Origin: an uncultured Parachlamydiaceae bacterium
Lineage (GTDB): Bacteria > Chlamydiota > Chlamydiia > Chlamydiales > Parachlamydiaceae
DNA length: 64,000 nucleotides
NCBI GenBank assembly: GCA_963703185.1
Contig: OY969795.1
Span: 375,968 to 439,967 of the forward strand
Direction: 5' to 3'
Below are positions 6,153-7,502 of this stretch, one piece after another. Under the pieces are notes generated by a model. That model saw nothing but the letters and a program-made list of their open reading frames with translations. It did not search any database and was not told the DNA's origin. The first letter of the stretch is position 1, and each line of letters begins with the position of its first letter. The position numbers and the translations under genes were made by a program.

Positions 6153-7502
6153 TCAAAGCTGATGCTGCTGGACGCTGAGGCCAGCCGGGGCGAAGCCCCC
6201 AACAACCACTTGATAGCCTTGAACATTCTCTTGACAGCGTGTATAGGTCCATGGACTATCGCTAAATAAGCGATTTTTAGAACGAGAGTACTCTGCCAAA
6301 ATACAAATCGCGGCTTCTAAAATAGTGGGAACTTGGCAAGGGACCCCAGTTGTTGCAGCAAGCTCAGCCACAATATTCTTTTGCTGACTGCAGCTTTTAC
6401 TTCTGCTTCCTTGAAGGACATCCTTTGTCATCAGCAGCCAAACAGATTCATCGACGGACTTATCTCCTAATTCATCAACAATTGTAGACCAAATGTATCT
6501 ATAGCCATCAGGCTTACTTGGAAAATATTTTTTTGCAAGCTCTCCAAGTTTTTTTATGGTAAGCCCTTTTGGCATTCTCACCAACACATGAGTTTCTCTA
6601 ATGCTTTTCCCAGGAAAAGCTGAACGTCTAAGTTCTTCCGCAATATTCTTCGGTAATGAGAGCATTTCTTGTCTTATGTTTACATCTTTTACAAGGTCTG
6701 CATTCCAATCTGCCCAATTCTTACTGCTAAAAGCGATTTCTCGATATATTGCTGACTGCCAAAGAATGGGGGTACTTGCACATTGGTTCCATGCCTTACT
6801 TACACTCCCACTCTCTCCAAGTTCATGGAGATTTAAATAAGAAAAAATGTGGCAAACAACCTCGGGAGGCATGATTATACAAGGATCTTTAGCTAGAGGA
6901 TCGATGACTTGACTTTCTTCTCTAGGCCTATTAATTATACAAGGATCTTTAGCTAGAGGATCGATGACTTGACTTTCTTCTCTAGGCCTATTAATTATAC
7001 AAGGATCTTTAGCTAGAGGATCGATGACTTGACTTTCTTCTCTAGGCCTATTAATTATACAAGGATCTTTAGCTAGAGGATCGATGACTTGACTTTCTTC
7101 TCTAGGCCTATTAATTATACAAGGATCTTTAGCTAGAGGATCGATGACTTGACTTTCTTCTCTAGGCCTATTATTAGCAGGTCTAGGTCTATTATTAGAA
7201 GGGGGAAAGCACCGATTCCAACAAGTTTTAACGATAAAGCAAACTAGCTTAAGAGATCCGTAAACAACAATAGGAACCCAAAGACATTGAGCGATTTTTT
7301 TGATAGTAGTCTGAATGGGTGATTTAAAAAAGTTTTCTGAAATTTTAGCAGTGCGTTCTCTAGAAGATAAACATGCCGATCCAATTTCATAAGCAACGGA
7401 AGCAATGCCTCCCAGAGGAATTAAATTTAAAGCCCAATCTTTTTTTGTCCAACCATCTGTGATGGAATCGCGAAAAAACGGTCTATTATTGTTGGTTCTC
7501 AT
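6153..7502 (-). CDS. F-box domain protein with N-terminal transmembrane segments and 5 x 20-aa tandem repeats
   Basis: 449-aa ORF. F-box consensus MPPEVVCHIFSYLNLHELGESGSVSKAWNQ...LW. Two hydrophobic segments near the N-terminus. Five exact NRPREESQVIDPLAKDPCII units. Confidence 0.8.
   Translation of the reverse strand: MRTNNNRPFFRDSITDGWTKKDWALNLIPLGGIASVAYEIGSACLSSRERTAKISENFFKSPIQTTIKKIAQCLWVPIVVYGSLKLVCFIVKTCWNRCFPPSNNRPRPANNRPREESQVIDPLAKDPCIINRPREESQVIDPLAKDPCIINRPREESQVIDPLAKDPCIINRPREESQVIDPLAKDPCIINRPREESQVIDPLAKDPCIIMPPEVVCHIFSYLNLHELGESGSVSKAWNQCASTPILWQSAIYREIAFSSKNWADWNADLVKDVNIRQEMLSLPKNIAEELRRSAFPGKSIRETHVLVRMPKGLTIKKLGELAKKYFPSKPDGYRYIWSTIVDELGDKSVDESVWLLMTKDVLQGSRSKSCSQQKNIVAELAATTGVPCQVPTILEAAICILAEYSRSKNRLFSDSPWTYTRCQENVQGYQVVVGGFAPAGLSVQQHQL
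6874..7173. repeat. Five perfect 60-bp tandem repeats (coding, in-frame)
   Basis: Sequence lines 6901, 6961, 7021 and 7081 are identical. The unit is attatacaaggatctttagctagaggatcgatgacttgactttcttctctaggcctatta. Confidence 0.95.

Follow-up and report, generated by a model that had tools for sequence, protein, structure and literature searches.

The F-box gene at positions 6153–7502 (minus strand) of the window, i.e. the whole 64,000-nt stretch of DNA analysed here, is the target of a diversity-generating retroelement (DGR). This is the main feature of the gene and it was missed in the original prediction, which had described a membrane-anchored F-box protein with a repetitive spacer. The 3' end of the gene lies in a variable region (VR; 6120–6209, minus strand) homologous to an 89-nt template repeat (TR) which adjoins intact reverse-transcriptase (RT) and Avd genes about 600 kb away in the same genome. 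This amoeba symbiont appears to subject the part of a host ubiquitin-ligase adaptor that recognises targets to hypermutation. Taken as a whole, the explanation that the window copy is a DGR-target F-box paralogue, rewritten in trans and coding for an exported SCF adaptor with a varied recognition loop, is considered highly probable.

Variable region and TR cassette

Five paralogous F-box genes (c1 to c5) were identified in this Parachlamydiaceae genome, all of them DGR targets; c3 is the window copy. The hypervariable core of its VR (6140–6176, minus strand) is 37 nt long versus 36 nt for the TR core, from which it differs by one extra base and by eight substitutions. All eight are located on TR adenines (P about 6.5e-6, 20 of the 89 nt being A). 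The same was observed for 9 of the 10 substitutions in c4, and for 14/14 in c1 and c2 if four extra AAC units are allowed. The VR cores of c1 and c2 are 12 nt longer than either TR of the genome and that of c5 is 3 nt longer, the c5 VR showing one non-adenine change besides. Facing the TR core, the target genes have 12–16 codons of the NNC type, whose differences from the TR are almost confined to adenines.

The 36-nt TR core is AAC-rich (AAC GTC (AAC)4 TAT GAC AAC GAC AAC ATT) and contains 18 adenines; the TR flanks contain none. About 4e10 possible peptides were calculated from the core. VR and TR have the GC-rich end GGCGTTGCGGCCCTGCGGAA in common and then diverge (GTTCTAAGG... versus ATCTTGTT...), by which these ends qualify, on sequence grounds, as a candidate IMH in the VR and IMH* in the TR. 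No GC-rich hairpin was found after the VR, as the 96 nt downstream fold at -5.1 kcal/mol (z = -0.04 compared to shuffled sequences). Not all DGRs have such a hairpin or cruciform after the IMH.

The intact cassette is made of the 89-nt TR (genome 984625–984713), an Avd gene on the opposite strand (genome 984245–984604) and an RT gene (genome 983197–984246) coding for 349 aa, and it is convergent with c5. The RT matched RVT_1 with 78.8 bits and displays a YCDD box and the sequence LGNATSQ, which we take to be a DGR-typical motif; its best NCBIfam match was a group II RT, below the cut-off of that model. Avd was recognised both by NCBIfam NF033474 DivGenRetAVD ("diversity-generating retroelement protein Avd"; 84.9 bits, cut-off 80) and by Pfam bAvd (70.1 bits, cut-off 40). 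Another Avd gene is located at genome 2184078–2184437, and a second site at genome 2184470–2184546 carries the 36-nt TR core with both flanks. In the 64,000 nt of the window, no TR, no Avd gene and no intact RT gene were found. We infer that the cassette acts in trans over 600 kb.

From metagenome contigs in which the VR flanks are identical, 14 VRs and one identical TR were obtained. A pooled set of 10 same-length VRs sharing the TR core, namely nine metagenomic ones and c4 of this genome, displayed 101 substitutions, 96 of which are located on adenines (96/180 adenine cells versus 5/180 others; Fisher p = 6.5e-30). The residues K, E, Q, M and W represent 4.8% of the VR positions in 50 homologues and 21.5% elsewhere (p = 5e-43), as expected from NNC codons.

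The layout with target and RT in convergent orientation, together with TR-(avd)-RT, was found in several Parachlamydiaceae genera, and the targets there are mostly F-box proteins. These loci contain adenine-biased TR/VR pairs, and their F-box targets scored above the Pfam cut-offs. The pairs, being short and divergent, escaped an automatic self-BLAST screen and were found by targeted local alignments. At one locus of another genus (L017), visual inspection had suggested an N-terminal BTB domain in the DGR target, and this candidate was dropped as no Pfam match was obtained.

The local array and the frame loss in c3

The original prediction had placed the gene alone between IS-bounded repeats. 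This is only so inside the window, as c3 is in reality a member of a three-copy array. The copies c1 and c2 (genome 371663–373063 and 373590–374990) are located 1–4.3 kb left of the window start with a period of 1927 nt; both are intact (466–467 aa) and carry the same five repeats as c3. The flanking repeat is no IS feature either. This 98-nt direct repeat (5793–5890 and 7709–7806) corresponds to nt 866–963 of the RT gene, by which an IS target-site duplication was ruled out, and it is present because the tandem unit begins inside the RT gene.

On the left side, a 3' remnant of a DGR RT gene (5793–5977, plus strand; RT nt 866–1050) is convergent with the F-box gene and 99% identical to the intact RT gene of the cassette. 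The remnant is cut at 5792/5793 by a 5.8-kb IS mosaic, of which an IS element coding for a 455-aa DDE transposase (4296–5792, minus strand) truncates the RT gene with its end. The mosaic is duplicated at 10181–15972. On the other side, a second RT-gene fragment (7682–7806, plus strand; RT nt 839–963) forms the junction of the 1.9-kb tandem unit and borders directly on the 179-nt upstream region of the F-box gene. Of the RT gene, the local array retains 3' fragments only. An Rfam search of 5500–8500 gave nothing meaningful. The DGR reading accounts for three puzzles of the window, namely the orphan RT tail, the 98-bp direct repeat and the 3' frameshift.

Over about 2 kb, c3 is identical to its sister copies c1 and c2 except for a 46-nt alignment stretch in the VR, and all 18 differing alignment columns between the units of c1 and c3 fall within 6142–6176. 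Since the copies differ only in the VR and the surrounding sequence is 100% identical, the VR of c3 was probably rewritten after very recent duplications.

With a core of 37 nt instead of 36, c3 loses its reading frame and, with it, the conserved C-terminal tail. The stop at 6153 is premature; the last 13 codons (6113–6152) are out of frame and the conserved GVAALRKF strand is missing, the IGVAALRKF-type tail being coded in another frame which stops at 6113–6115. This truncation was also overlooked in the original prediction.

From the frame loss and the missing terminal strand, one could argue that c3 is a dead copy, i.e. a pseudogene in an IS-ridden recombining region, with its serving DGR destroyed by IS insertion and the VR pattern left as a fossil. 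The survival of the RT gene at the locus as fragments only, the IS elements on both sides and the RT of the c4 locus, which is frameshifted as well, would agree with this. We nevertheless consider it rather unlikely, as the VR alone differs, and was thus probably rewritten, in an otherwise identical and very recently duplicated unit, the core of c3 belongs to the length class of the existing 36-nt TR, one cassette with RT, Avd and TR is intact, and the remaining ORF is open for 449 codons. The frameshift could alternatively be an artefact of the assembly. The true c3 would then be intact (~462 aa), the extra base having been introduced by mistake into the consensus of three near-identical 2-kb repeats, which are hard to polish in a single-contig genome. 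This is judged unlikely: the extra base is located outside any long homopolymer, and the L017 locus, from another genus and an independent assembly, likewise contains a VR that exceeds its TR by 5 nt and is out of frame. Moreover, one metagenomic VR has an in-frame stop, and frameshifting indels next to AAC occur in 11 of 372 DGRs (PMC5758913).

F-box, repeat linker and C-terminal domain

The ORF of c3 (6153–7502, minus strand) codes for a 449-aa protein exactly as previously quoted; homologues of ~375 aa end in IGVAALRKF and extend further at the C-terminus. The F-box domain corresponds to residues 211–250 (6753–6872, minus strand), where Pfam searches matched PF12937 F-box-like (43.0 bits, cut-off 24.3) and PF00646 F-box (31.5 bits, cut-off 20.5). 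An AlphaFold2 model of the intact paralogue P0002, and not of the window copy, predicted a three-helix F-box fold with a pLDDT of ~90 or more, for which Foldseek retrieved the F-boxes of Skp2, FBXL and SLY1 (probability 0.97–0.99, rmsd 1.1–3.7 Å; for Skp2 and FBXL, probability 0.99 and rmsd 1–3 Å). The lack of any F-box HMM hit had been named beforehand as an argument against the domain; the profile search found the F-box above cut-off, and the fold of the paralogue agrees with it.

Both hydrophobic segments claimed for the N-terminus were found by Kyte-Doolittle analysis, ~24 residues apart, and only one of them is convincing. Segment 2 (residues 70–95; 7218–7295, minus strand) is a likely transmembrane helix with a 19-window maximum of 2.12. 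Segment 1 (residues 23–45; 7368–7436, minus strand) is weakly hydrophobic (maximum 1.46) and is a marginal transmembrane candidate, modelled as a helix at low confidence by AlphaFold2.

The five nucleotide-perfect 60-bp repeats were recovered with Tandem Repeats Finder at 6874–7173 (minus strand; period 60, 5.0 copies, 100% matches, score 600), together with a partial 21-nt repeat at 7161–7202. They code for residues 111–210, which are five units of NRPREESQVIDPLAKDPCII, i.e. (NRPREESQVIDPLAKDPCII)x5, and they are indeed placed between the hydrophobic N-terminus and the F-box. In the paralogue model, this linker displays low confidence (pLDDT 56–58). The 20-aa repeats are proline- and acid-rich and may form a disordered spacer or a multivalent motif, the length of which would shift by recombination.

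A variable copy number had also been proposed. This is true among relatives, where the linker counts 0, 1, about 2.8 or 5 units: one paralogue has no repeat unit at all, and one unit each was found in a 94%-identical metagenomic protein, in P. acanthamoebae UV-7 and in two MAG orthologues. In another lineage, an 18-aa unit was independently expanded in the same linker. It is not true of the three local copies, each of which has exactly five units, and no direct sign of ongoing repeat slippage was seen in this genome. One may still picture an ordinary membrane-anchored F-box effector with the number of 60-bp repeats as the main adaptive variable and the 3' differences as incidental, in line with the perfection of the repeats, their position between anchor and F-box and their range of lengths among relatives. 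Such a view is improbable, as the local copies combine an identical repeat number with different 3' cores, and the 3' variation tracks the adenines of a TR adjoining RT and Avd, a pattern that chance divergence cannot yield. The dominant variation is located in the DGR VR at the 3' end and not in the repeat spacer. The earlier observation of ORF, segments, repeats and F-box is thus confirmed, and its interpretation is partly supported.

The C-terminal domain of about 210 aa (6113–6752, minus strand) is specific to Parachlamydiaceae and is the scaffold that displays the variable loop. It was found in 34 of 73 genomes of the family, with 14 of the 15 genomes having RT or RT remnants and 20 of the 58 genomes without (Fisher p = 5.6e-5). 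No Pfam family was found for it. The domain was folded alone because the full-length Foldseek search recovered only the F-box. The resulting AlphaFold2 model (pLDDT 91.6, pTM 0.91) shows the VR as a loop between the last strands. Foldseek gave no match for the domain at E <= 0.001, the best E-values being 0.5 (PDB) and 0.07 (BFVD). The weak top matches included ToxD, PvdO and OvoA, presumably FGE-like proteins, as well as C-type lectins and Mtd 1yu3, with TM values up to 0.43. A C-type-lectin/FGE-like fold is only suggested by these matches, because no structural match was significant.

Two positions of the family alignment are invariant (C423 and Q374), and two more are nearly so (H305 and D347). 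These residues could belong to an enzyme, e.g. a cysteine protease or deubiquitinase, the active site of which would be tuned by the variable loop. We consider an enzyme instead of a binding module very improbable, as sequence searches of Pfam, NCBIfam and PDB gave no match to any enzyme, and Foldseek revealed no protease fold, the weak matches being FGE-like proteins and C-type lectins, among them Mtd, itself a DGR protein.

Proposed mechanism and relation to known systems

In the mechanism favoured here, c3 would have been rewritten in trans, after the gene duplications, by cDNA from a TR with a 36-nt core, and the extra base may originate from slippage of the RT in the AAC tract, a behaviour known from DGRs. 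The protein family is probably exported by type III secretion, by analogy to other chlamydial F-box and BTB families, for which heterologous assays revealed functional type III secretion signals (PMC4209131). The N-terminal hydrophobic pair is predicted to hold the protein in a membrane and the F-box to bind host Skp1, while the DGR-varied loop of the C-terminal domain would pick host proteins for SCF-dependent ubiquitination. The copy c3 is now most likely a non-functional or 'off' allele, which another round of retrohoming could restore since both VR flanks are intact. With somewhat less than even confidence, we propose that amoeba-associated chlamydiae may direct a retroelement-driven hypermutation system against the host proteome, in which the family would represent secreted F-box adaptors of changeable specificity via a DGR-rewritten loop of 12–16 residues. 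Out-of-frame copies would then be reversible OFF alleles and the repeat number would set the reach from the membrane.

Similarly to the prototype DGR of Bordetella phage BPP-1 (Mtd/avd/TR/brt), the transfer from TR to VR is adenine-specific and the VR is located at the extreme 3' end of the target; AAC codons in the TR, the presence of both Avd and RT, and a GC-rich end common to VR and TR before their divergence are further shared features. In contrast to BPP-1, where a phage tail fibre is diversified, the target is a eukaryote-like F-box protein. The TR, with 89 nt and 18 core adenines, is short, avd lies on the opposite strand between TR and RT, and the target is convergent with RT. The hairpin after the VR is absent, and the C-type-lectin fold is only suggested.

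As for TvpA of Treponema denticola and other non-phage DGRs (Wu et al., 2018, PMC5758913), one cassette is associated with several paralogous targets, of which some lie at a distance of over 100 kb, and TR and VR differ in length next to AAC, with occasional frameshifts; that study documents remote targets, frameshifts and AAC-adjacent indels for DGRs. TvpA-type targets are surface lipoproteins with FGE-type C-type-lectin domains, whereas the targets described here have an F-box and, in this subfamily, the N-terminal hydrophobic pair. Legionella pneumophila, whose DGR diversifies LdtA, is likewise an intracellular bacterium associated with amoebae. Unlike the F-box target, LdtA is a lipoprotein displayed on the surface and is not known to have a eukaryotic-type domain. 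Most of the DGR targets known to date are receptor-binding proteins of phages or surface proteins, and some are intracellular sensor proteins.

The F-box effectors of chlamydiae and Legionella (NEX1, NEX2 and PEX families, Domman et al., 2014, PMC4209131; Legionella AnkB) also combine an N-terminal or central F-box with a C-terminal protein-binding module, have expanded in Parachlamydiaceae by tandem duplication and are presumed to be secreted SCF adaptors. They rely on LRR, TPR or ankyrin repeats and on gene birth and death, whereas a loop of a distinct 210-aa domain is rewritten here by a retroelement; Domman et al. (2014) make no mention of RT or retroelements. With chlamydial Inc proteins, the protein shares two hydrophobic segments near the N-terminus followed by a C-terminal part, which faces the cytosol in Inc. 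It differs from them by the spacing of the segments (~24 residues) and by the weak hydrophobicity of the first one.

No report linking DGRs to F-box proteins or chlamydial effectors was found by full-text literature searches or in Domman 2014, Wu 2018, Roux 2021 and DiGReF 2012, and the supplements of DiGReF 2012 name no chlamydial genome. If true, the proposed mechanism would show, for the first time, accelerated and targeted variation acting on an effector that is directed at the interior of a host cell. Besides gene birth and death, environmental chlamydiae would have a further means of keeping up with diverse protist hosts. Targeted protein degradation could also profit from such a natural, compact and programmable substrate receptor joined to an F-box.

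The order and strands of TR, reverse avd and RT are the same as in architecture B3, TR-(avd)-RT, of the DGRs from the candidate phyla radiation (CPR) (PMC5758913), with the difference that they were found here in Chlamydiae. B3 is reported to be nearly absent outside the CPR set (PMC5758913). The TR-(avd)-RT arrangement, reported as typical of CPR bacteria, exists in Chlamydiae.

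Domain composition and relatives of the F-box protein

The F-box gene of the window (c3; 6153-7502, minus strand) encodes, as originally predicted, a protein of 449 aa. The F-box was confirmed at residues 211-250 by the Pfam families F-box-like (43.0 bits, gathering cut-off 24.3) and F-box (31.5 bits, gathering cut-off 20.5), while none of the NCBIfam profiles matched the c3 protein. The five perfect 60-bp repeats were likewise recovered by Tandem Repeats Finder (6874-7173, period 60, 5.0 copies, 100% matches). They correspond to five units of NRPREESQVIDPLAKDPCII at residues 111-210, with a partial NNRPRPANNRPRE repeat ahead of them. 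Among the two proposed hydrophobic segments, the one at residues 70-95 is convincing (Kyte-Doolittle maximum 2.12), but that at residues 23-45 is marginal (1.46). A Met codon (ATG, 6870-6872) is located directly before the F-box in c3 and in its paralogues c1 and c2, at a position occupied by Ile in most relatives. Speculatively, a start at this internal ATG would yield an anchor-less F-box protein.

A search of 5.8 billion proteins delivered 159 relatives of the c3 protein. Every named one belongs to the Parachlamydiaceae. Parachlamydia acanthamoebae UV-7 contributes two of them (376 aa), and the 2.67-Mb genome of the window itself another, a paralogue of 364 aa. The family alignment revealed that the 20-aa unit occurs as a single copy in the relatives, and that the linker is a hot spot of length change. 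All relatives end with GGFAPAGL, 10-16 variable residues and IGVAALRKF; the c3 protein terminates at GLSVQQHQL, without the IGVAALRKF end. Residues that NNC codons cannot encode (K, E, Q, M and W) represent 4.8% of the variable stretch in 50 homologues versus 21.5% of the protein outside it (p = 5e-43). Of the 15 positions that distinguish the two UV-7 paralogues, 10 lie within the variable stretch.

Five full-length paralogues were identified in the whole genome. Two of them, c1 (genome 371663-373063) and c2 (373590-374990), both on the minus strand, are identical and encode 467 aa with five repeats and an intact end. The third, c3, also has five repeats and is truncated, and the plus strand carries c4 (2181663-2182898, 411 aa) and c5 (981967-983061, 364 aa).

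F-box genes as targets of a diversity-generating retroelement (DGR)

Comparison of the c1 and c3 units showed 18 differing alignment columns, all within window positions 6142-6176, where the variable codons are of the NNC type. Outside of this variable region (VR), the units are 100% identical over about 2 kb. Two short template repeat (TR) sequences bearing the VR flanks were found at genome positions 984637-984713 and 2184470-2184546. Each lies on the strand opposite to a paralogue, about 1.6 kb past it. Both contain the core AAC GTC AAC AAC AAC AAC TAT GAC AAC GAC AAC ATT. Within the 89-nt TR, 18 adenines are present in the core and none in the 5' flank. Each TR adjoins a reverse transcriptase (RT) gene and a gene for a 119-aa protein, which matches the NCBIfam profile 'diversity-generating retroelement protein Avd' (84.9 bits, cut-off 80) and also passes Pfam bAvd. 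The RT of the c5 locus (349 aa, YCDD) is the only intact one, that of the c4 locus (genome 2183035-2184079) being frameshifted into frames of 279 and 76 aa. The c4 VR flank fits the TR of the other cassette, not that of its own neighbouring cassette.

Substitutions relative to the TR core fall at adenines in 8 of 8 cases in c3 (+1 nt), 9 of 10 in c4 (same length), 7 of 8 in c5 (+3 nt) and, allowing four extra AAC units, 14 of 14 in c1/c2 (+12 nt). A scan of public metagenomes with the two VR flanks added 14 VRs, together with one identical TR that shares a contig with a VR. In ten same-length VRs (nine metagenomic ones and c4), substitutions affected 96 of the 180 adenine cells versus 5 of the 180 cells elsewhere (p = 6.5e-30). 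Most of the metagenomic genes with identical VR flanks (loci L031-L044) are of a short F-box type (~290 aa) without hydrophobic N-terminus; therefore, one TR sequence serves both anchored and soluble members.

DGR-type RT genes or remnants were detected in 15 of 73 Parachlamydiaceae genomes. In all cases inspected, the RT is convergent with a gene carrying the ~210-aa C-terminal domain of the family (C-domain), with a gap of 150-350 nt. This domain is present in 14 of these 15 genomes versus 20 of the 58 others (p = 5.6e-5). Full cassettes with reverse-oriented avd and TR were found in three other genera (loci L017, L018 and L022). Adenine-biased TR/VR pairs were confirmed in L017 and L018, and the L022 contig ends ahead of any target. 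In both L018 and L020, the target is a short F-box protein above the Pfam threshold. The L017 target (3846-5612, 588 aa), located beside RT, Avd and TR, has a different N-terminal region without Pfam match. In UV-7, a truncated RT adjoins the F-box copy. The TR-(avd)-RT order corresponds to architecture B3, reported as typical of DGRs from the candidate phyla radiation (Wu et al., 2018, PMC5758913).

A stem-loop follows the TR immediately, between the TR and the avd stop (genome ~984605-984636), with equivalents in L017 and L022. It appears to be conserved among genera with paired changes (CCCTGCTGAG...CTCAGTGGGG, CCCACTAAG...CTTAGTGGG and CCCTACTGAG...CTTAGTGGGG), and may belong to the DGR RNA as an element required for priming.

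Predicted structure and proposed function

AlphaFold2 modelled an intact paralogue with pLDDT above 90 from the F-box through the C-terminal end, and with 31-64 in the hydrophobic N-terminus and 56-58 in the linker. Foldseek matched the F-box model to Skp2, FBXL and SLY1. Modelled alone, the C-domain reached a pLDDT of 91.6 and a pTM of 0.91, the VR forming the loop that precedes the final strand. It is not covered by any Pfam family, and no match in PDB or BFVD reached an E-value of 0.001. The top matches, all weak, were to the FGE-like proteins ToxD, PvdO and OvoA, to C-type lectins and to Mtd, itself a DGR protein. They hint at the usual DGR scaffold but fall short of demonstrating it.

In the proposed function, the hydrophobic pair would anchor the protein, the F-box would recruit host Skp1/SCF, and the loop varied by the DGR would pick substrates. 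The acidic, proline-rich repeats may function either as a spacer lacking ordered structure or as a multivalent motif. The literature on DGRs and that on F-box effectors of chlamydiae are both well established; our search of it found no paper linking the two, and the RT may be listed uncommented in large DGR catalogues. By analogy with other chlamydial F-box and BTB families, for which functional type III signals are documented (Domman et al., 2014, PMC4209131), this family is probably exported.

Frame loss and array structure around c3

The VR core of c3 measures 37 nt, that of the TR 36 nt. Within the AAC-derived tract the reading frame breaks, leaving the conserved terminal strand untranslated; the conserved tail lies in another frame just downstream, with a stop at 6113-6115. 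No unique position can be assigned to the extra base. An assembly error is a possible source of it, but not the likeliest one, as it lies outside any long homopolymer. DGR length changes beside AAC repeats, frameshifts included, are documented and ascribed to RT slippage (PMC5758913). VR length changes are often seen in this lineage: +5 nt and out of frame in L017, +3 and +6 nt in L018, and lengths of 39 and 42 nt among metagenomic VRs. A natural VR with an in-frame TAA inside the variable core was observed in a metagenome contig (L043, Ga0335397_10118803). In the reading as a DGR product, c3 would have been rewritten in trans from the TR with the 36-nt core, after the duplications. Its sister copies c1 and c2 are intact. 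At present, c3 is most likely an off or defective allele, which a further retrohoming event could replace.

The original prediction placed the gene alone between IS-bounded repeats. It is alone within the window, but c1 and c2 follow one another in a tandem array (period 1927 nt) immediately to the left of it. The array unit begins at RT nt 839, covers the remainder of the RT gene as well as the convergent F-box gene, and closes 179 nt upstream of where the F-box gene starts. RT remnants flank c3 at 5793-5977 (RT nt 866-1050, cut by IS) and 7682-7806 (RT nt 839-963). The 98-nt direct repeat that had been read as IS-bounded lies within RT gene sequence, and arises where the truncated first and last units of the array overlap. 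Fragments of the RT 3' part next to C-domain genes were also observed in contigs of many genomes (G006, G012, G027, G038, G056, G062, G064 and G071), which suggests that modules of RT 3' end plus target were duplicated repeatedly, as in the window.

A 5.8-kb IS mosaic (1-5792), whose end adjoins the first RT remnant, separates c1/c2 from c3 and is repeated at 10181-15972. The copies are 100% identical, with three transposase genes (IS66 family and two DDE_Tnp_1). A 634-nt tail follows both arrays and includes an ORF of 147 aa (7883-8326, plus strand) without Pfam family. An IS21-type element (16112-18916), coding for an IstA-like integrase with Mu-transposase C domain and an IstB ATPase, is bordered by inverted repeats of 116-130 nt (98-99% complementary). 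Two further duplications were observed, one inverted (45172-46127 and 61051-62006; 956 nt, 99.7%) and one direct of 1.8 kb (57498-59280 and 62218-64000; 99.4%), the latter affecting a 1762-aa ORF in its 3' part.
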